A DNA stretch of 64,000 nucleotides from Malacoraja senta. Lineage: Eukaryota. The stretch is taken from contig CM075989.1 in NCBI GenBank assembly GCA_038087875.1, positions 1,550,001-1,614,000 of the forward strand, in the 5' to 3' direction. Below, in pieces: positions 1-34,924 of this stretch. The notes under the pieces were generated by a model that made no database searches, had not been told where the DNA came from, and saw only the letters and a program-made list of their open reading frames with translations. Every line of letters begins with the position of its first letter. The first letter of the stretch is position 1. Both the position numbers and the translations under genes were made by a program.

Positions 1-412
1 GAAAGCGTCGAAGGTGAAGGCAAGTCGAGCCGCCGGGAGAGTTGCTGTGGAAGACCGCGGGAGTGCGGGTAGCGGGCAGCCGCGTATCTCACCTACCAAG
101 TCGCTGCCGGTACGGCCAGTGATTTCAGACTTGGTGCCTCCTGAGAGCACCGTGGCTGCACCATTGGGGCGGAAAGCCACTAAAAAGTCTGCGCGGGCCG
201 TAGACTCGGATGAGTCGGGCCGGGAGGATTCCCCTCCGGTAATGGATAACGTCTTTGGACGTTGGTCCAGGATGGAGATCCTAATGGAGAGGATGCTCCA
301 CCAAGATACACTCCAACAGGAGGAGTTGTGTCGGCGCGGGTCTCCTCGGGGGCCCACGCCAGCGGCACCTGTATCAGGGCTGCTTAATGTCTCCCTCTTG
401 GAGGAGTAGAGA

Positions 413-1261
413 ATGCGGAGTCAGTTTTATTCTGACGCCGAGTCTGTGGGTTTAGCCGTGGAGCATACCCCAAGGGATGAAGGGCACGAGCCAGAGGTAC
501 CAGTCCTGGCAGCAAGATTTGCTATCCCAACACAAACAGGGGAGCCGCTGGGTGAAGAGTTGGCTGCAAGTATAAATTACCTGGCCTCACACCAGCTTCA
601 AGAGCATACTATGGATGAAACATCCAGAAAATATGAGATCCCTGTTAACTGTGTCCTGCTCAAAGTGCCGGCGGTTAACCACGCCATCTGGGGTCATATG
701 GGCGTAGGCATCAGAGCTCAGGAACTGAGGCTTCAGAGGGTTCTGAAGCTGCTCGCCTCAGGTATTACAGCGTTCGCCAAGTTGGTGGATGGAGGGCACC
801 TGTCTGATGTACAGCAGGATGCCCTGGCCCTCATGTGCAATGCACACTTTGAGATAAATTGCCTGAGGAAGAGCACCATCCGCCCTACCATCAACCCTAA
901 GTTCGTGGCTCTGTGCAAACCCAGCAATATCCAGCCACCAAATCTGCTGTTCGGTGAAGACGTCTCTAAAAGAGTCAAGGAGCTGGTTCGACGAGGCAAG
1001 AACGGTCGGACTCATCAAAGCACCGACGACCAGCAGAACCTCGTTTCGGCGACAGCATCCCTACAAACGGTTTGCTTAAACCGGTTCAGGGTAAGGACCA
1101 AGCCGGCCATTCATAAATATGCACAGCTGGCGCACTCCAACAGGGGCACGGGCGAACATGTCCTTACCCCCCAGAAACAGGGGGCAGAAAATGGTGGCAG
1201 ACACCAGGTCATGCAAATTCAAAGACAACACAGAATGGATGTTGAATCTGCATGTATTTAA
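413..1261 (+). pseudogene. DIRS ORF1 (gag-like), interrupted upstream by a stop at 407-409
   Basis: CNAHFEINCLRK..IRPTINPKF..LCKPSNIQ..NLLFGED matches the copy-2 ORF at 9292. Confidence 0.75.
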
Positions 1262-1640
1262 TGATATTGTTGTTCGGTATGGGATGCCAGATATCGATTT
1301 GTTTGCATCCAGACTCAATCACCAGTTACCGAAGTATGTTTCATGGGAACCAGACCCAGGGGCAGTAGCGGTAGATGCATTCTCGCTACACTGGGGTGGA
1401 ATGTTTTTATATGCATTTCCCCCATTTTGCCTCATCAGTCAGTGCTTGCTCAAGATCAAGCAGGACTCCGCCTCAGGAGTTTTGGTGGTACCCGACTGGC
1501 CTACATAGCCATGGTTCCCACTCGTTTTGGGGATAATAACACAGCCTCTTATGACTGTCCCGAAACGTAGTGACCTACTGGTGCACCCTGTAATGGGGAT
1601 CCACATCCTTTACATGACCGTATTGATCTATTGATTTGCG
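1190..1640 (+). pseudogene. DIRS N6-adenine methyltransferase-like domain (pol C-terminus)
   Basis: DIDLFASRLN..YVSW.PDP.A..VDAF...W...YAFPPF...VVPDWPT*PWF; in-frame stop at 1506-1508. Confidence 0.8.
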
Positions 1641-2613
1641 GATTCTGAGGAGGCCATACCTGGGGCTCAGACTATCCGATTGTACCGTGGATGTGATCAC
1701 TGCGGCCTGGATGGATAGTACCAAACAACAGTACATCTCTCATGTCAGGAAATGGGAGGTGTTTTGCTTACGGGGAAACATAACATTTCACACGGCATGC
1801 ATCTCAGATGTGCTAGAGTTTCTGTCAACGCTATACTTTGATGAAGGGTTGAGCTATAGTGCCATCAATAGTGCCAGGAGTGCCCTGTCATCATACTTAT
1901 GGCTGGGGTCGGAACAACACTCTGTTGGATCTCACCCTTTAATATCCCGGTTAATGAAGGGTATTTTTAATTCCAATCCCCCCAGGCCCAGGTATTCTGA
2001 AATCTGGGATGTGAGCATGGTACTCACGCTGCTTCGCCAGTGGGCTCCAGCCACATCCCTGTCTTTGCCCAAAATCACACTTAAGGTGGTCATGCTCATG
2101 GCGCTGGTTTCAGCACAACAGGTCCAGACGTTGCAGAAGCTGCGACTGGACAGGATGGTATCATCTGGAAATAACATAACGTTTTTCGTTTATGATTTAA
2201 TTAAGCAGAGTAGACCAGGGGTGCCAGGATTTAATTTTTCGGCATACCCCACGGATTTACGACTGTGTGTAGTTTCGCACTTGCAACATTATATCAAGGT
2301 GACCAAGAGCCTCAGAGGCTCGGAATCAGCATTATTTATTAGCCACAAAAAGCCGCATAAGAAAGTGTCGGTACAGACCATTTCAAGATGGCTGAAACAA
2401 GTTCTGGTTTGTGCAGGAGTAGACACTGACAATTTTAAATCTCAATCCACCAGGGCGGCATCAACGTCAGCAGCGAGGGCAATTGACATCCCTCTCGACC
2501 ATATCCTCGCGGCCGCAGGATGGTCAAATGAACTGACGTTTCAAAGATTCTATAACAAACCGCTTACCGAACCGGGGGTATTCGCCCATTCCATTTTAAG
2601 TTCTGTTTCATAG
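1636..2613 (+). CDS. DIRS tyrosine recombinase (open frame, catalytic R and H substituted)
   Basis: 325-aa ORF; SYSAINSARSALS, P.PRY..IWDV, (H>Q)STRAASTS, AAGW, FQRFY motifs. Confidence 0.88.
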   Translation: MRILRRPYLGLRLSDCTVDVITAAWMDSTKQQYISHVRKWEVFCLRGNITFHTACISDVLEFLSTLYFDEGLSYSAINSARSALSSYLWLGSEQHSVGSHPLISRLMKGIFNSNPPRPRYSEIWDVSMVLTLLRQWAPATSLSLPKITLKVVMLMALVSAQQVQTLQKLRLDRMVSSGNNITFFVYDLIKQSRPGVPGFNFSAYPTDLRLCVVSHLQHYIKVTKSLRGSESALFISHKKPHKKVSVQTISRWLKQVLVCAGVDTDNFKSQSTRAASTSAARAIDIPLDHILAAAGWSNELTFQRFYNKPLTEPGVFAHSILSSVS

Positions 2614-3120
2614 CTTCCCCCTGGGAGAGAGGGGTCGCTATTGTTTTTTCTTTGTTAAATAAACCATCAACATGTTCAAATCAATGCCATGGTTCAATGC
2701 ATTGTTTATTATTCACTCATCCTGGGTCAATTGATGCAGTGAGACGCCTGGATTCGTATCTATGACATGAAATCACAGAGCTTTGAAATCTTCACAGAAT
2801 CACTCATGTGACTGAAGTAAAATAGTAAGGTTAAACGAGAACTTACCAGTTTGAAGTTTGATCTTTATTTTATGAGGAGTTACGATGAGCGATTACGTGC
2901 CCTCTGCTTCCAACCCTAATATCACAAAGGTCATCTGGTAGTTCTAGGTTTCTAATCGTACTATGTTACTTCAATTACTGTTACCTGCGATTTCACACCG
3001 CTGCTTTGAAGATTGACCCACATGCGGGCTGGTGGGTTCTTCACGTAATCGCTCATCGTAACTCCTCATAAAATAAAGATCTAACTTCAAACTGGTAAGT
3101 TCTCGTTTAATCTTACTATT

Positions 3121-3842
3121 CTTAATGGGAAAGTAGTGGGTAGAAAGGCATGTCATGCGTGGTTTGAAGAGGAAAAACTTGTAGTTTACAATGCCAAAAT
3201 TGAAAAGTTGAGGAAAAACAAGGTGTACAGAGTTGCTTATTGGTTACAATCTGAGGAGTATGATGATGCTACTGATTATGATATGCCAATGTACCAGCTA
3301 GCAACTGATCTTCTCCATAAAGACTTGGTCTATTGCTAGAAATTGTAATTTATTTACCTATCTGTTATGGACTTACAGCATATAATACAATAATATTAAA
3401 GTTCTGATCTTGAGAATATCACATTTTTGAATTTTCAAGGCAGTCTGGGTGTTTATTACTATTTCCGTCACAACGGTCAATTTTGTAATTAGCTACAATT
3501 AGGTAATTAACTAATTATATGCTTTAATTTCAGGTCATCCAAGTAAGATGTTTATTATTTGTTTCAGAATGCTTCAATCTATATTAACTGAAAATTTCAT
3601 TCAGTTCTCTTAATTTTTAAGAAAGTTATGGGCTTTTGACTGTCCTCGATCACAGCTTTTGTCTTCAGTCAATGGAAAAGCAATAGGGAACAAGATGCTA
3701 ATTTCCGAGTATGAAAATGGCCATAACTTTTTTTAATATTGAAGATATGAAAGTGAATTAGGTGTCAAATTAAACTTCTTTTTATGCTTTATCTGATGGT
3801 ATAAATTGCAGACTTGATTTTTTAAATCTCAAAACATTGCTA
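3121..3842 (+). mobile_element. 3' part of a TAG..CTA DNA transposon with ORF C-terminus (3121-3339), interrupted by DIRS copy 1
   Basis: 3478-3842 is near-identical to 15787-16148, ending CATTGCTA; upstream lies a coding remnant. Confidence 0.75.
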
Positions 3843-3899
3843 TAGAAATGCTGCCTGTCCTGCTGAGTTATTGCAGCTTTCGGTGTCTATCATTGATTG

Positions 3900-9639: not shown

Positions 9640-11560
9640 AGTACTCAAATGACTCAAGAGGTAGGTGGACCTGGTTCTCATGGGAACATACTAATCGGAT
9701 TAAGTCCAAAAGTTGGAGGCAGATTACGTCTCTTCTATAACAATTGGAAGAAGATTACTTCAGATGTGGTAATTCTGAATAATATACAAGGATTTCGAAT
9801 TGAATTCAATCCAAATTATGATTTGACTGTCCGGCATGTTCCTAGCAGAACTCTCCACTTTGCACAAAAAGAAGTGATGGAGGTTCAAGCTGCGCTTCAA
9901 ACCCTATATATAAAAGGTGTTATTGAAGAATCAGTCTACCAAAGTCACCAATTTGTGTCAAATATATTCCCTCGATCAAAAAAGGATGGAGGATGTAGGA
10001 TTATTATAGACTTGACAAGTCTGAATCCTTTTGTTCATGTTATACATTTAAAAATGGAGACATTTGTACTGCCAAACAACTTATCTCAGAAGCATGTTTT
10101 ATGGCAACTATAGATTTAAAAGATGTATATTATTCAGTGTCTGTTCACTTGGAAGATATGAGGTATCTTAAATTTACATGGATGAACCAGTTAGGGCAGT
10201 TCAAAGCTCTGCCTAATGGGTTAACGTCCGCTCCCAGAATATTCACAAAATTGTTAAAATCAATTCTGGGGTTGCTGAGAAGCCAGGGGCATGTACTAAT
10301 GGCATACTTGGATGATGTCCTGATTATAGGAAGGACAAAACAGTCAACAGAAGCATCTGTTGCAGTGGTGAAATCAACTTTTGAAAGTTTGGGGTTTTCT
10401 AAATTCATCCAAAGAAATCAAGGTTAACACCATGTACTTCGATTGATTATTTGGGGTTCACAATTGATTCAGCCCAAATGAAAATTACTTTGCCCAGTGA
10501 AAAAAGGATGGAGTTGATTAAAGATTGCAGTAATCTGTTAAACGAGCAAAAACCCTTAATCAGACAGGTGGCTCGAGTACTGGGAAAATTAGTAGATTCC
10601 CAGCAGTCCCGTATGGACCATTACATTATCACCAGCTGCAGAGAGTTAAACAACAGGCACTGAGAATAAATGCTGTTCATTTTGATAGAACCATGCAACT
10701 AACAACAAATGCTGTTTCTGATCTGCAGTGGTGGATTCTACATGTCTCAAGCAGTTCCGGCAAAGTGCTGATTGAACAACCTTCCATGATATTACAAACT
10801 GATGCCAGTGCACTAGGATGGGGTGCAACTGACTTAACATCTAGCTGCGGAGGCAGATGGAATCATGAAGAGTCATTGTTACTGCAGACATGGGGAACTA
10901 ACTATTTGGTGCTTTTGGGATGTTTCTATGGACTCCAAGCTTATTGTTCTAACACAACTAAAAGGCATGTTCAAGTTCAAATTGATAAACACAACAGCAG
11001 TTGCCTATATTAATGATATGGGTGGAATTAAGTCGGTGTCATGTGACAAAATGGCTAATCAACTTTGGTCTTGGTGTATTGAAAAGAACATTTGGATTTC
11101 AGCTATCTATCTACCAGGTAGAATGAACACGATAGCAGCCACCAGGTCACGAAAGTTCCATGATAATAAAGAATGGATGTTGAATCGAGAGGTATTCAAT
11201 GATATAGTAATCAGATTTGGAATGCCCGACATCGACTTGAATCATCAGCTATCGAGATATGTCTCATGGGAACCAGATCCAGGAGCAGTGGCGATTGATG
11301 CTTTCTTGCTACATTGGGGTGGTATGTTTTCATATATATTTCCACCTTTCTGCCTCATAAGCCAATGTTTGCTTAAAATCAGGCAAGATGCTGCTTCACG
11401 TGTATTGGTAGTACCAGATTGGCCTACACAGCCATGGTATCCGTTGATATTAGAATTAAACAACACAAATGTTGATGAAAGTCCCAAAAAGGAGTAATTT
11501 ATTGCTGCACCCTGTAACAGGGGAACAACATCCATTATATGATCATTTGGATTTGTTGAT
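9640..11560 (+). pseudogene. DIRS pol (RT-RNase H-MT), several frameshifts
   Basis: VGGRLRLF..NW, IDLKDVYY, YLDD, TDAS, YIN.MGG, YIFPPF. Confidence 0.9.
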
Positions 11561-11566
11561 TTGCAG

Positions 11567-12310
11567 GTTTTAAGTAGGCCTTTTCTGGGGCGAGGACTGT
11601 CTGAGCGTACTGTGGACATGCTTACGGCAGCCTGGAGGAAGAGCACTCAAAAACAGTACCTTTCTTATATTAAGAAATGGGAAGAGTTCTGTGTACAAAA
11701 GAATGTGCAATATATTACTGCAGATATTTCAAATGTTTAGAATTTCTGTCAAAACTTTATTATGATGAAGGTCTGAGTTGTAGTGCAATTAATTCAGCAA
11801 GAAGTGCATTGTCCTCATGTTTGGTTCTGGATTCAGAAAGAAACCCAATTGGGTCACACCCAATTGTTTCCAGACTAATGAAAGGAATCTTTAATTCCAA
11901 ACCACCGAAACCTAGGTACATGACAATCTGGGATGTAAGTGTGGTACTGAAACTACTTCGTGAATGGTCACCAAGTGTGTCTTTACCTTTGGCCAAGCTC
12001 AGTATGAAAGTATTCATGCTTATGGCATGAGTGACAGCACAACGAGTGCAAACACTTGGAAGATTACAAATAGACAGTATGGAAGTAACTGAAGATAAGG
12101 TTACATTCTATATCTATGACCTACTAAAGCAAATTAGGCCAGGTGTGACAGGATTTAAAATTATGCTAGCAGCATATCCAAATGGCCAGGGCAAAAGATG
12201 TCCTCGTCGATCATATCCTCGCAGCCAATGAGTTGATGTTTCAACATTTTTACCATCGGCCTATTGTTAATGCGGGATTGTTTGCAGAAACTATTTTAAG
12301 TTCTGTGTAA
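11567..12310 (+). pseudogene. DIRS tyrosine recombinase, disrupted and internally deleted
   Basis: AINSARSALS, PKPRY..IWDV, TAQRVQTL. Confidence 0.85.
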
Positions 12311-12882
12311 ATTCCTCTGGTTTAAAGGGGATCTGATTCATTTCATTATTGAAATGAATTACTGCATTTGTGGTACAAATGTTATTATGAATGCATGATT
12401 GATTATTCTCGTTCCGAGTCAATCAAAGCAGTGAGAAGCCGGGATTGATCTACGGCATGAAATCACAAAGCTTTAAAATCTTCACGTAGTCACTCACGTG
12501 ACTCCGAAGTAAAATAGTAAGATTAAACGAGAACTTACCTAAGTTTGAAGTTTGATCTTTATTTTATGAGGAGTTACGTAGCTGAGTATGTGCCCGCCAC
12601 GACCCTACCCTCTATCATAAAGGTCAGATGGAAGTTCTTGTATTACTCGTTTTATTATGAGACTATATTACTTCGGTTGTTGTTTTTTGTGATTTCACAC
12701 CGCTGCTTTGAAGATTGACGCGCAGGCGCACTGGTGGGGTTCTTCACGTAATCACCTACATAACTCCTCATAAAATAAAGATCAAACTTCAAACTTAGGT
12801 AAGTTCTCGTTTAATCTTACTATTAATAACCTTAGTACTCGAGTTTAGCAGCATCATGAGAGGCAACAGTGATCCTGGAAAT

Positions 12883-15110: not shown

Positions 15111-16148
15111 TAGGTATGTTACAATACTTACCTTCAGCGGTGCTGCAATTCTGCCACTGGCCGTGTGCGTGATTTTGGCGTCTTTGAGGGGGTGAGGGGG
15201 GGGGCGGGGTTAAAACGCGGATTTCTCCTACCTTGTCCTGGATTATATTTCGTTGGAGTGCAAGCTTTTGCTGAAGAATCGTTCCAACGGGCGTTCTGTG
15301 TATTTTGTTTTTAAAATCGCCCGACAAGTTCAGCGCTGGAGTAATATTATAATCAGCTTCTAAAGCCGTCAACGCCGACAACGGGGATGGATTTAAACGC
15401 ACAGGACAGGTAAACGAAAGACGTTTATTTTATGTATAAAAGTGTTCCTTAAGATGCCTTTAATTCACATTTTAAGTTGCGAAACGGTGATTTGTTTCCT
15501 CGTACGAACCGGCAGAATTTTTCATGCTGATACGGGTTTGAATTCACCGCAACCGCAACGTTCCAAATGATCGCGTTCCAGAAAAACCCAAGATGATTTA
15601 AATGGGCATTAATTTACAGGTATCAAACATTAAATTCCTTCCATTTGGCCTATAAATCCATGACAATGAGATTTAAAAATTATGTTATATTGTGAATTCT
15701 TGTGTGAATGTTATTTGGACACTTAGGCTTTTTAAAAATGTTAATCTATTCTTAAGAAATTGATAGATGTTTAGATCTATTAATTGAATTTTGTAATTAG
15801 CTACAATTAGGTAACTAACTAATTATATGCTTTAATTTCATGTCGTCTAAGTAAGATTGTTTCATATTTGTTTCAGTCTATAATAACTGAAAATTTCTTT
15901 CAGTTCTCTTAATTTTTAAGAAAGTTATGGGCTTTTGACTGTCCTCGATCACAGCTTTTGTGTTAAGTCAATGGAAAAGCAATAGGGAACAAGATGCTAA
16001 TTTCCAAGTATGAAAATGGCCATAACTTTTTTAATACTGAAGATATGAAAGTGAATTAGGTGTCAAATTAAACTTCTTTTTATGCTTTATCTGATAGGAT
16101 AAATTACAGACTTTATTTTTTAAATCTCAAAATTTTGTAACATTGCTA
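15111..16148 (+). mobile_element. Non-autonomous DNA transposon, TAG..CTA termini, 7-bp TSD
   Basis: TIR TAGGTATGTTACAA / TTGTAACATTGCTA; TATAAAG at 15104-15110 and 16149-16155. Confidence 0.85.
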
Positions 16149-16704
16149 TATAAAGACCCAGCATTACATCCTTGTTTTTATATGGCAGTGCTCACTTATT
16201 AAATGCTAGCATTGCATTTGTGTTTCTTACTACCAATTTGACTTGCAAATTAACTTTTTGGGAATCCTGTACCGGCACTCACAAGTTCCTTTGCATTTCT
16301 GATCTCTCCCCATTCAGAACATAATCTACGCCTTTGCCAATTTAAGTCATTCCTGGTCACCAGAACCGGTGCTATAAAGCTCACAAACCCATGCACCAGA
16401 CCAGAGTTGCTCATTGTGGATCTGACATTCAGCATCCTGATTCAACCCCACTTATTTTATTTGGCGCTTTAGCCAATCTGAGTGGAAGCCACCAGCAGTG
16501 GCTGTCTCGCCAACAGTCTGTCTGTCCTTTCTTCTTTTTGTTGTTTTTAGTATGTGTTAAACAGGCACGTGTCGTGAGTAATTACTCAGGGTAGGCAGTC
16601 AGTCGGCTTTTAAAAAATCTTAAACCGCGCAGATTGTTCTCCTCTCCGTAAGCTGTCAGTCGACTTTTATAAAGTCTTCAAAAGCCATATCGCTTAATAA
16701 AGTA

Positions 16705-30490: not shown

Positions 30491-33400
30491 TTTTACTTCG
30501 GAGTCACGTGAGTGACTACGTGAAGAGCCCGCCAATCCAGCTTGCGCTGCTTCTGCCAGCGGTAAGTGAAACCTACAGGTAAGTTTTTAACTTTCCAGGT
30601 TAGGTTTCTCTGCAGGAATCTCTTTTATAATAATTAATTTTATTTACTGGCGCCTTTCTAAAACCCAAGGACACCTTACAAGGCATAGAATCACAAAAAT
30701 ACAAAACACATAATCAGAATAAATTAAATTAAATATAAAAACACCACAGTACACAAATCAAGGACAGAATTCAATTTCAAAAGCACAAAAAGAAAATAAG
30801 AAACACAATTTGAGGAGAGAGCAGCGGCAGCCAAACCGCGCCAGCGTCCACTCTCCCCTCCGACCGCCATCTTGCACACAGACTAACAGGCACAGCACAC
30901 AAAAATCATCCCCCCACAATGACCACCACTGTGGGGGAAGGCACAATGTCCAGTCCCCAACCCAGTTCTCCCCAGAGTCAGGCCCAATGTGGCCTCCACA
31001 GTTGCCTCTATGGAGGCCCGATGTTCCTGGCCGTCAGGAGAGTCCTCGGAGCGGCTGGAACGGCCGGTTTCCCAGCAGAGTCGATGGCACCTGAAGCCGA
31101 GAGGGCCGCGCCGATTTGGAGTCCACGAGGCTCCTGATGTTGGAGTCGGCGCCGCCGCCCGCGGCTGGTCGCTCCGCAGTCCCGCAGCCCGGAGGTGTTG
31201 ATCTTGGCGGTCACCGCATACCGGAGCTCCAGCGTGTCGACCCAGCGCGGCGACCCAGGCAAGACATCGCCCGCTCCGCTCCACGATAGCGCCCCAGCGC
31301 TGTGCCGCCGACCGAAGCTGAAGGTGCTGGGCGGTCCCCGTCAGGAAACGGCGCTCCATGCCCGCTGGTAGGCCACGAGGATGGGTCGACGAGGCAGCCT
31401 GGAGAAAAAGCTGCCTCACCGACCAGGTAGGGACATAGAAATAGTTTCCCCCTTACCCCCCCACATTAAAAGTCAAAATCCCCCAAAGAAACAAAGAAAT
31501 AAAAAAAGCTAAAACTAAAGAAAAAGTGAATTTGACGGACGGCTGCTCCAAGATGGCGGCTCCTCCTGAGTTTTATAGAGTTCCTGCTGGATTTCGGGGC
31601 AAAGGTGAAGGGCCGCGGGGAAACCTTTATGGACCGCGTCCCAGTCACGGACCGTGGGGAATCCCGGTCACGACCTAGGGGAAGCCCGACCACAGATTCG
31701 CGGGAAAGCTGGCCACAGACCGCGGGGAAATCCCGGCCACAGACTGCAGGGAAATCCCGGCCACAGACCGTGGGGGAATCCCGGCCAGAGACCGCGGAAG
31801 TGCGGGTAGTGGCGGCGGTCAATTTCGCCTTCCGAGTCGCTGGCGGTGGAGCCAGCGGCTTCAGATTGGTGCCGGCAGCACCTTGGCAAACCCGCTTGGA
31901 GGGTAGCCACAAAGAAAGACTGTACGGCCCGTTGACCCAAATAAGTCGGGTCAAGAAGATTCCTAATGGAGAGGATTCCCTCCTTCAGTGGGTAACGTTC
32001 TTCGGAGGTCAAACCAACATGGAGCACCTGATGGAGAGGTGCTCCACAATAGTATGCTCCAAGGAGGGAGTTATATCACCGCGGGTCTCTGTGGGTCCGC
32101 GGCAACAGCACCTGTGTACAGGGCTACAACACTGTCTCCCTCTGAGAGGAGGGGAGCAGTCGGGTCGGTTCTGTTTGACTTGGAGTTCGAAGATATAGCC
32201 GGGTGCATACCATGAGGCACCAAGGATATGGTCCGTGGAGGGGCCATATCAGTGCAGGTCTCTTCAGGGCCTGCGACAACAGCACCTGTGTACAGGGCTG
32301 CAACACTGTCTCCCTCTCTGAGCAGGGGAGCAGTCGGGGTCAGTGTCTAACTGACTCCAAAATTCGGTGTATATCCGTGGCACATACTGGAGTTCCTGAA
32401 AGTGCCGGCAGTGAACAGCGCTATCAGGGGTGACGTTGGAGAGGCATGGACCCAGGGAACCAGCCGCCGAATCTTCTCTTCAGGTAAACCTATTCAGCAG
32501 GTGAGACCTGCATGAGGGAGTTAAAGCTGTCGAACTACGAGTACAGCCTCATCGTTTCGGCAACAACACACCCCACACCTCCATCGGCAGTAGCGGTTCA
32601 CTGAAGCCGGTGGCAGCCGACAAAGTGAACTGTTTTGTCAGGCAGTCTCAGGAAAAATATGGAATCCATGTACCCTCAATCAGGACAAAAATAGAACCCG
32701 CATCAGGGGCCTTTGGGCTTACCATAAGACCACCGGTAACCATGAAGGTAGGTAGGTCAGGTTTTTTCTGAAATATGAGGTATATGGACCATTTACAAGT
32801 TTGTAATACTTATTGTTTGTACAAATGACAAAGTGAACTGTTTTGGCATCCATCCAGTTAAATTTAAGTTGATACCAACTAGAGTTATTGATTATTGTGA
32901 TTTACCTTTAACTCTATTAATTTGCTGTGACTCCGCCCTGGCGGCAAGAGATGGGAATCAATTAAAGCCTGTAACTTTTACTCAGTAACTCTTTAGTTGT
33001 ATTACAAAGTAATGCTAGTACTCAAAGATGAAATTACGAATACCATCTATTTACGGAGGCAGATGGGCTTTGCATGGGTTACCTATTTTCGGTTATATGG
33101 TATCAACTATCTATAAGACACTGAGTGTATCATCACGTAAAATCCATGACAACATGTGCTTCGATGGAACACCGAATATCAATATGATTTGCATCCAGGC
33201 TCCATCACCATTGCAAAAATATGTGGCACAGTGGAAATAGGTGTATTCTCGAAAATCCAGCAAGATCTCGCCTCAGGCATTCGTACTGCCTGACTGGCTT
33301 ATGCGGCCATGGTTCCCGCTAAATGTTAGGAATGATAATAGGACCTTATATGGTTATCCTAAACACAAAAGGTTTGGTAGTTCACCCTGTGACTCGGGAA

Positions 33401-34800
33401 ACCATCCTATTCATGATAAAATCAATTTATAGACTTGCAGACTCTGAGAAGACCATTCTGCGGCTCGGGTTGCCAGACCGATCTATGTACATGCTCACTG
33501 CAGAGTGCAGGGATAGCACTGAGAAAGCAGCACATTTTTCCTCATCAGCAGATGGGAAGTGTTTGTTTCAATGCTAACGTTACATATAATACGGCATGGA
33601 TAGCTAACGTCTCGGAGTTCATTAACTCGATTTTCAGACAATCGATTAAATGATAGTACAATTACTGTGCCAACGTGCTTCCTCACAATAGTTGCTGCAG
33701 CATTCGGGACCCACTCTGTTGGGTCTCACCCTCTGATATCCAGAATTATAAGGATTTTTTTTGACGCAAATTCGCCCAGGTACTTGGAGATATGGGATGT
33801 TAGCTTTGTTCTTAAACTGCTTCAACAGTAGGGCCCAGCTACATCTTTATCCCTGGTCAACTCACTTACAAAGTAGTTAGCGCAGACTAGGGGCGTTAGG
33901 TTCCAAACAATTTCTCATGGCATACCCCATGGACCTTTGGTTGTGTGTGGTCACACATTGACAATAATACATCAAGGTCACCTGGAGCCTTAGAGGCTCT
34001 GCACTAGCAATGATTGTTAGTTACTAAAAACCTCATTAAAAAAATATCAATCCAGACTATCTCCAGGTGGTCAAAACAGGTTTTGGCTTATGCAGGAGTA
34101 GATACTAATATTTTCAAATCTCACTCCACTAGGGCTGCAACAACATCAGCAGCAGGGTTATGGACATTCCGCTGGACCACATCCTAGCGGCTGCAGGATG
34201 GTCAAACGAACGATCTTCCAAACATTTATAACAAACCCATTGCCAGACCAGGGGTATTGCCAACTCTATTTTAGGTTCTGTTTTATAGTTTCCTCCCAGA
34301 TGAGAAGAGTTACTATTGTTATTATTTGTTCATCAAAAAGCATCAACATGTCTATATCTATGTCATGTCTGAATGCATTATTAATGTTCACTCATCCTTG
34401 GTCAACCGACGCAGTGTGTGACGCCTGGACTCGTTTCCACGGCATGAAATCACAGAGCTTTAAAATCTTCACGTAGTCACTCACGTGACTCCGAAGTAAA
34501 ATAGTAAGATTAAATGAGAACTTACCAGTTTGAAGTTTGATCTTTATTTTATGAGGGGTTATGATGAGGGATTACGTGCCCTCCAATCCCAACCCTCTCT
34601 CATAAAGGTTAGCTGGTATTTCTATTTTCTCGAATCTTACTATTTTCACTTCAACAACTGTTATCTGTGATTTCACACCGCTGCTTTGAAGATTGACGCG
34701 CAAGCTGGACTGGCGGGCTCTTCACGTAATCCCTCATCGCAACTACTCATAAAATAAAGATCAAACTTCAAACTGGTAAGGTCTTGTTTAATCTTACTAT
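30491..34800 (+). mobile_element. DIRS1-type retrotransposon copy 3, both termini present, internally deleted and degenerate
   Basis: Left TTTTACTTCGGAGTCACGTG; ICR ~34466-34578; right ITR ~34693-34800; YR remnant 33441-34285 with SHSTR and AAGW. Confidence 0.93.
30630..31570 (-). mobile_element. GC-rich non-autonomous retroelement with L2-like tail, inserted in DIRS copy 3
   Basis: TSD TTTTATA at 30623-29 and 31571-77; tail TGTAAGGTGTCCTTGGG..AAAGGCGCC..AATAAA. Confidence 0.7.
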
Positions 34801-34924
34801 TTAACGTGAGAGGGGATGCATTTAATAGGAACCTGAGGGGCAACCTTTTCACACAAAGTGTGGTGGGTATATGGAACGAAATGCCAGAGGAGGTAGTTGA
34901 GACGGGTCCTATAACAACATTTTT

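Follow-up and report, generated by a model that had tools for sequence, protein, structure and literature searches.

A hAT-type transposase ending in a Spindlin-like Tudor domain in Malacoraja senta: predicted structure, relatives and landing sites

A family of DNA transposons in Malacoraja senta encodes a hAT-type transposase whose C-terminal tail is a Spindlin-like Tudor domain. This tail probably binds methylated histone tails and would tilt insertions to CpG-rich chromatin. The element has been recently mobile in a vertebrate, and its intact copies place the domain at the end of an ORF of 978 aa. The analysis began with a short peptide encoded in the window, by which is meant the whole stretch of 64,000 nucleotides that was analysed (contig CM075989.1, positions 1,550,001 to 1,614,000).

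Translation of window positions 3121-3339 on the forward strand gives a 72-aa peptide followed by a stop. Farther downstream, 3479-3848 aligns over 379 bases, at 90% identity, with the 3' end of the TAG..CTA element (15111-16148). The features concerned, all on the forward strand except where no strand is given, are:

1..3120, forward: DIRS-type retrotransposon lying inside transposase codon 906; its start lies some 210 bases ahead of the window
1627-2613, forward: tyrosine-recombinase ORF of the DIRS element (Pfam Phage_integrase, E 2.6e-4, below the cut-off)
2821-2899/3042-3120: internal inverted repeat of the DIRS element
3121..3339, forward: transposase codons 907-978 and stop, Spindlin-like Tudor domain; a non-functional remnant in the window copy
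3160..3279, forward: codons of the predicted cage, W920 (3160-3162), Y929 (3187-3189), Y946 (3238-3240) and Y959 (3277-3279)
3340..3842, forward: 3' non-coding end of the transposon with a damaged terminal inverted repeat, from comparison with intact copies
3843..3849, forward: 7-bp target-site duplication, one mismatch against its partner at L040:8539-8545 upstream of the window
15111..16148, forward: 1.04-kb non-autonomous relative with an exact 7-bp duplication

Full-length elements elsewhere in the genome have a 978-aa ORF, and the peptide corresponds to its residues 907-978. At the DNA level, 3121-3834 matches young copies with 94-95% identity, and public proteins include relatives of the peptide at 72-82% identity. 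Given the full-length genomic ORF and the public relatives, the peptide is no chance ORF. The original prediction had placed the peptide ORF inside the TAG..CTA transposon, which is borne out by the 3' DNA match and the ORF of the full-length elements, and had supposed that the autonomous element encodes the domain, which was indeed found at the C-terminus of intact 978-aa ORFs. It had also held that the DIRS element interrupted the ORF and that the rest should lie upstream of the window. The retrotransposon does sit in codon 906, but the remaining ORF is absent upstream: joining across the DIRS element led into a non-coding 5' half (L040:8546-9690, directly before the window) with no long ORF. 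The window copy is thus a 1.55-kb internal-deletion derivative split by the DIRS element, and an ORF continuing upstream was rejected. A spliced last exon was rejected as well, since the apparent acceptor is formed by codons 903-905 of the intact ORF. In a sister copy, a stop stands in frame about 12 codons upstream of the Tudor domain. The window copy is dead and encodes nothing; it would have been moved in trans. Eight inner bases of its right terminal repeat are missing in comparison with intact copies, and residue 959 is tyrosine here and phenylalanine in young intact copies. Of the 3' end, the relative at 15111-16148 retains just 372 bases, none of them from the Tudor codons. Elsewhere in the window, two more DIRS-type copies (11135-12824 and 31789-34805) share 69-83% identity with 1-3120. 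In the segment 46578-49853, long open frames overlap on the two strands, a pattern typical of low-complexity tandem arrays.

A DNA search with 3121-3420 returned 1680 candidates, and the 40 that were scored are each 98-100% identical; in 19 other copies, retrieved with long flanks, no long transposase ORF was present, and most of them are elements of about 1.55 kb. A protein search revealed a 960-aa relative with the same C-terminal peptide, and the core of this relative has at least 133 matches in the genome (131 of 223 candidates scored). From the better core matches, 60 were retrieved for element anatomy. Both ends were present in 49 of the 60 copies, with an exact 7-bp target duplication in 44 of these 49, and an ORF of at least 977 aa was present in 16 of the 60, a proportion that is no genome-wide rate since the copies were picked as top matches. 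Young copies measure 4.27 kb, have TAG...CTA ends and are up to 99.9% identical. Their terminal inverted repeats are 14 bp long, imperfect and start with TAG, and the target sites lean towards C-W-W-W-W-W-G (38 sites). Members of an older subfamily have 90-95% ORF identity to the young ones, and one of them shares its 5' terminus with the 1.55-kb derivative; by this sequence comparison, the older subfamily is probably the source of the derivative.

The model of the 978-aa protein (mean pLDDT 85) comprises a helical N-terminal domain, a disordered linker, coiled coils, the core, a long helix and a small barrel. In the model, the core is RNase H-like with a helical insertion. Structure comparison of the core ranked Hermes best (Z 17.2, rmsd 4.0 over 336 residues), the next match having Z 10.3, and Foldseek also placed Hermes first (E 1.3e-6). 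The catalytic core is accordingly predicted to be Hermes-like, with D429, D506 and E784 as the acidic residues and C531-x-x-H534 in the insertion; among 109 aligned rows, these positions are conserved in 104 (D429), 107 (D506), 95 (E784), 108 (C531) and 109 (H534). The long helix, residues 825-882, is predicted to keep the Tudor domain apart from the core. Between the young and the older subfamily, the core differs by 30 silent and 13 replacement changes (omega 0.12).

The C/DxxH motif in the insertion domain is a hAT feature, and 7-bp duplications characterize the hAT group known as hATw. The Hermes-like DDE fold, the CxxH in the insertion domain and the short terminal inverted repeats all speak for hAT membership, so that the superfamily, whose identification had been recommended along with the original prediction, can be named. 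The enzyme is a hAT-type transposase, yet it departs from the usual pattern in three respects: the duplication is 7 bp (exact in 44/49) and not 8 bp, no BED finger was found, and PF05699 did not match. Pfam searches with the whole 978-aa protein gave no match at E<=0.1, BED finger, PF05699 and THAP included, and in the N-terminal part no Cys pair and no BED finger were seen. Compared with Hermes (PDB 8edg, 6dwz, 4d1q, 2bw3), the transposase shares the DDE core, the large helical insertion, the CxxH motif, the single ORF and the short inverted repeats starting with TAG. It differs from Hermes, with its 8-bp duplication, in the 7-bp duplication and in lacking a BED finger and a Pfam hAT dimerisation match; it further has an extra long coiled coil (198-343) and the C-terminal Tudor domain, and identity to Hermes is 11%. 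Other superfamilies were considered. The P element would agree with the 7-bp duplication alone, but it was rejected, as there is no Pfam THAP match and the core matches it less well in structure (Z 7.8) than Hermes; Academ was ruled out by duplication length and fold. Variation in duplication length has precedent: hATs usually make 8-bp duplications, while groups with 5, 6 and 7 bp exist, and the fungal 'hAT7' families, which make 7-bp duplications, group with Ac/Tam3 (excerpts of PMC12730594). hATx and hATm are treated as 8-bp groups in the available part of PMC8721813, and the hATw label is applied to Hydra and amphioxus elements in excerpts of PMC12905397 and PMC13465017. Hydra homologues are among the matches of the transposase, a likeness to hATw by label only and not by sequence comparison, and the literature searched on hATw yielded no mention of a Tudor domain.

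The C-terminal domain, residues 897-978, was modelled with a pLDDT of 95.7 as a Tudor barrel with a closing helix and strand like those of Spindlin repeat 2. Foldseek with this model gave no match at E<=0.001, and Spindlin chains occupied 9 of its first 11 ranks. After re-alignment of 979 Foldseek candidates, the top 24 were all Spindlin entries (Z 7.4-8.6), the best being residues 125-193 of Spindlin1, which form repeat 2 (Z 8.6, rmsd 2.2, 66 aligned). A wide search of 48,161 representatives ended in a tie of the RDM15 Tudor (7.1), Spindlin-4 (6.9), the SH3-like domains of TraI (6.6-6.7) and BAHCC1 (6.3). At the sequence level, a profile of 32 domain sequences placed 17 Spindlin sequences first among 177,635 PDB sequences, at the weak E values of 0.0013-0.38. 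A 72-row profile scored 11.2 bits against repeat 1 of the host Spindlin (best shuffle 4.8) and 6.9 bits against repeat 2, below the best shuffle of 8.7. Pfam Spin-Ssty (PF02513) matched none of the 32 members, nor the peptide or the full protein, against 82 bits for the control, a host Spindlin repeat; the weak Pfam matches among the 32 members were to PTM_DIR17_Tudor in four and to a BAHCC1-like Tudor in three. As the Spin-Ssty threshold is missed, the domain is best called Spindlin-like and no filed member of that family. Single-sequence Pfam and PDB searches with the 72-aa peptide retrieved nothing relevant, and the full-length profile retrieved nothing but coiled-coil noise from PDB sequences. 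The Atlas assigned the peptide to a Spin/Ssty cluster at 0.87, which was taken as a lead only. The Spindlin repeat pattern recognized by eye in the original prediction is thus upheld by the modelled fold, the predicted cage and the profile ranking, and the search proposed there against Spin-Ssty and Tudor families gave a divided answer, Pfam Spin-Ssty remaining unmatched and Spindlins coming top by profile and structure comparison. The host genome itself has a single Spindlin locus by Pfam model search, assembled in two near-identical copies (L076-L081).

In Spindlin, the K4me3 cage consists of F141, W151, Y170 and Y177 (excerpts of PMC3967050). A comparable four-residue aromatic cage is predicted in the transposase domain, where an aromatic residue stands at position 920 in 71, at 929 in 71, at 946 in 72 and at 959 in 68 of 72 rows, these being the rows of the 109 that cover the domain, after two frameshifted rows had been removed by hand. 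A weak profile alignment with repeat 2 of the host Spindlin (probability 12.9%) sets 920, 929 and 946 opposite F141, W151 and Y170. It sets Y177 opposite P962 and not F959, so we infer residue 959 as the fourth member from the strand register. Repeat 2 of Spindlin1-4 (PDB 7e9m, 4mzg, 4h75) is the best match over the whole domain, closing helix and strand included, with three cage residues aligned and the fourth deduced. The differences are also clear: Spindlins contain three tandem repeats whereas the transposase has one fused domain per chain, identity is about 17%, the loop after strand 3 is longer in the transposase, and its score lies below the Pfam threshold.

Substitution patterns within the genome say little about constraint on the domain. 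Between the young and the older subfamily, it shows two silent and four replacement differences, too few to show constraint. For changes private to single young copies, omega comes to 0.98 for the domain and to 0.52 for the core, the latter value being biased because the copies were chosen with a core query. Across 39 derivative copies (L002-L020, L262-L280 and window 3121-3339), domain omega is 0.46 (p 0.007), with three stops and no frameshift, and the deletion junction of the derivative lies directly before the Tudor domain. The value of 0.46 is probably explained by shared subfamily variants and CpG decay, and the retention of Tudor codons by the derivatives is likely due to chance or non-independence.

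Outside this genome, 108 relatives of the transposase were found; those named that bear the domain come from a limpet, snails, a priapulid, a starfish, a crinoid, a sea spider and Hydra. Among the rows that reach the preceding helix, 74 of 91 have the domain; the other 17 of 91, fish and sponge records included, end early or diverge. The domain profile retrieved 457 cluster representatives at E<=0.001. At least 142 new representatives were listed, 65 of them with 150 aa or more, and transposase sequence lies upstream of the domain in 59 of these 65. Such a wide presence in relatives indicates that the fusion is old and typical of the lineage.

Insertions of the element are biased to CpG-rich DNA, about threefold over random, a modest effect in small samples. 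The metric was a 500-base segment close to the insertion point with GC>=0.55 and a CpG observed/expected ratio of >=0.65, and 40 random 9-kb regions of chromosome-scale contigs served as control; the threshold was fixed after four had been viewed, and gave 14/38 against 19/116 random. Duplicated loci, copies lacking a clean duplication and short flanks were removed (8/49 autonomous copies, and a few more by flank), and the insertions analysed are the surviving germline ones. With 1-kb flanks, a CpG-rich neighbour was found at 12/41 autonomous sites, 6/26 of the 1.04-kb family and 7/13 of the 1.55-kb family, which pooled makes 25/80 against 13/156 random (p 2e-5) and 2/40 for Tc1. The two non-autonomous families, retrieved later as a second set, reach 13/39 by themselves (p 2e-4 and 1.5e-3). 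The excess is weaker with 720-base flanks (16/92 versus 19/236, p 0.017). Taken by itself, the 1.04-kb family does not reach significance (3/27 at 720 bases; 6/53 per end, p 0.13). Counted per end, a segment lies within 1 kb at 26/172 (15%) compared with 20/356 (5.6%) at random, and bootstrapping by site and region gives P 0.0002. In the same count, two classic hAT families have 1/41 (p 0.034), the 41 ends being those left after 19 duplicated flanks were dropped, and Tc1 has 2/77. One of the classic families is abundant (1425 candidates); an element end of it lies at window 16563-16680, and its other copies provided the comparator. The Tc1-like family (L222-L261) is abundant and young, 1.62 kb long with 215-bp inverted repeats and about 97% identity, and many of its copies have 343-aa ORFs. 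Four neighbours look promoter-like by eye (L065, L068, L172, L267), among them that of the young copy L068, which is about 1 kb away from a proline-racemase-family gene, measured to its first coding exon (E 7.8e-28). No CpG-island-like neighbour is present at 146 of 172 ends, the window copy included; with most ends in this state, the effect is a bias and not strict targeting.

The original prediction was of a methyl-histone reader that may guide integration, and the landing-site bias agrees with it. A mechanism can be proposed in which the transpososome would be tethered to methyl-lysine nucleosomes through the predicted cage at the end of the long helix. The tethered complex would then insert within about 1 kb, and insertion near CpG-rich chromatin would become more probable. 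The best-guess mark is H3K4me3, suggested by the repeat-2 match and the promoter neighbours, and its main rival would be a mark containing K9me3. In a version of the latter that we consider unlikely, the mark recognized by the domain would be repressive or dual (H3K9me3, H3K4me3-K9me3 or H4K20me), and the domain would steer insertions to young GC-rich transposons or allow the enzyme to sit on, or to shield, its own silenced copies. Of the CpG-rich neighbours, 14/25 are repeats and 11/25 are unmatched in a 1.7-Mb pool, and the repeats are in excess on their own (14/80 versus 7/156 random, p 0.0015), as this reading would have it. The top structural matches also include Spindlin with K4me3-K9me3 and H4K20me3 peptides, and SPIN1 marks young LINE1 copies with H3K4me3 and H3K9me3 according to the abstract of PMC11499256. 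However, the unmatched, non-repeat CpG segments are likewise in excess (11/80 versus 6/156, p 0.008), promoter-like ones among them, although some of the 11 appear by eye to be low-copy retroelements. No preference for repeats or for general GC content was seen at the insertion sites (repeat content 0.429 versus 0.429 random; 16/38 sites inside repeats versus 45/116), and dual-mark reading by Spindlin takes more than one repeat in the available part of PMC3967050, whereas the transposase chain has one.

The barrel could instead be an SH3/Tudor fold that binds DNA or helps to assemble multimers, like that of Tn7 TnsB, with the bias being the ordinary open-chromatin preference of hATs; we regard this as quite improbable. 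It draws on the structural matches to TraI (Z 6.6) and to the N-terminal domain of TnsB (Z 6.8), on a lysine-rich loop at 935-940 and on the missing N-terminal BED finger, which means that another part of the protein must bind the transposon ends. Tol2 and Ds, moreover, favour start sites, CpG islands and H3K4me3 (excerpts of PMC4825651 and PMC3413126), and such a promoter preference in elements with no known Tudor domain counts against reading the bias as a Tudor effect. Against a DNA-binding barrel stand the four cage positions, aromatic across phyla, the first place of Spindlins in both sequence and structure searches, and the classic hAT ends of the same genome, which have no excess. A further reading would put the CpG excess down to small samples, threshold choice, non-independent copies or post-insertion selection, with the domain perhaps binding methylated non-histone proteins; it also seems a poor prospect. 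The comparator sets are small, the counts were made with two thresholds and four flank lengths, one site is common to L265 and L278, and some derivatives travel within a classic hAT. All three subfamilies nevertheless point the same way, whatever the flank length, chromosome-scale contigs alone give 9/33 (p 0.005), and omitting one of the two copies at the shared site alters the result little; selection, moreover, would be expected to purge promoter insertions and not to add them. Binding of methylated histone tails by the transposase tail remains our preferred reading of the domain.

Reader-guided insertion is established for some retrotransposons. The literature searched, which lay outside Repbase Reports and most subscription journals, yielded no paper in which a Tudor or Spindlin domain belongs to a DNA transposase. 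Gypsy-10_Ec32 was called the first reported transposon with a Tudor domain in a 2025 paper (PMC12477816). Chromo and PHD fusions occur in mobile elements, the sponge Ephydatia hAT-chromodomain included, according to the accessible part of 10.1101/2021.11.30.470311; 'Spin' is absent from the main text of that source, and the 823 fusions of its Supplementary Table 6 could include one with such a domain. PMC3597677 mentions neither Tudor nor Spin. Chromodomain Gypsy elements, Gypsy-10_Ec32 and the Ephydatia hAT-chromodomain likewise have a reader fused to the integrating enzyme as a proposed insertion guide, but they are retrotransposons or carriers of chromo and PHD domains, whereas here a cut-and-paste DNA transposase is joined to a Spindlin-type Tudor domain.

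A broader proposal, falling a little short of an even chance, is that animal-wide cut-and-paste transposases with their own Spindlin-type reader land beside H3K4me3 (or K4me3-K9me3) chromatin, that the reader is a removable module, and that the Spindlin repeat may have come from these elements or been captured early by them. The 80-residue tail of the intact copies, which are up to 99.9% identical, can be mutated or removed, and this makes the chromatin choice of a DNA transposon directly testable; the landing-site excess provides a first prediction. Spindlin1 helps to silence young transposons in mouse germ cells (abstract of PMC11499256), and with a similar reader in a transposon the question arises which of the two took the domain from the other.

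Several arrangements were observed among the copies themselves. In L283, L285, L286, L288, L295 and L305 (from about position 2320), the 1.55-kb derivative is cargo of a classic hAT; this host family then multiplied, so that part of the copy number of the derivative comes from piggy-backing. At L063 (1178-1707 and 5980-6317), a young autonomous copy has apparently inserted into a non-autonomous family member that lies in inverted orientation. L026 and L083, members of different subfamilies, agree in their 7-bp target and in their flanks; they seem to occupy one position in two copies of a repeat, which is possibly an insertion hotspot.
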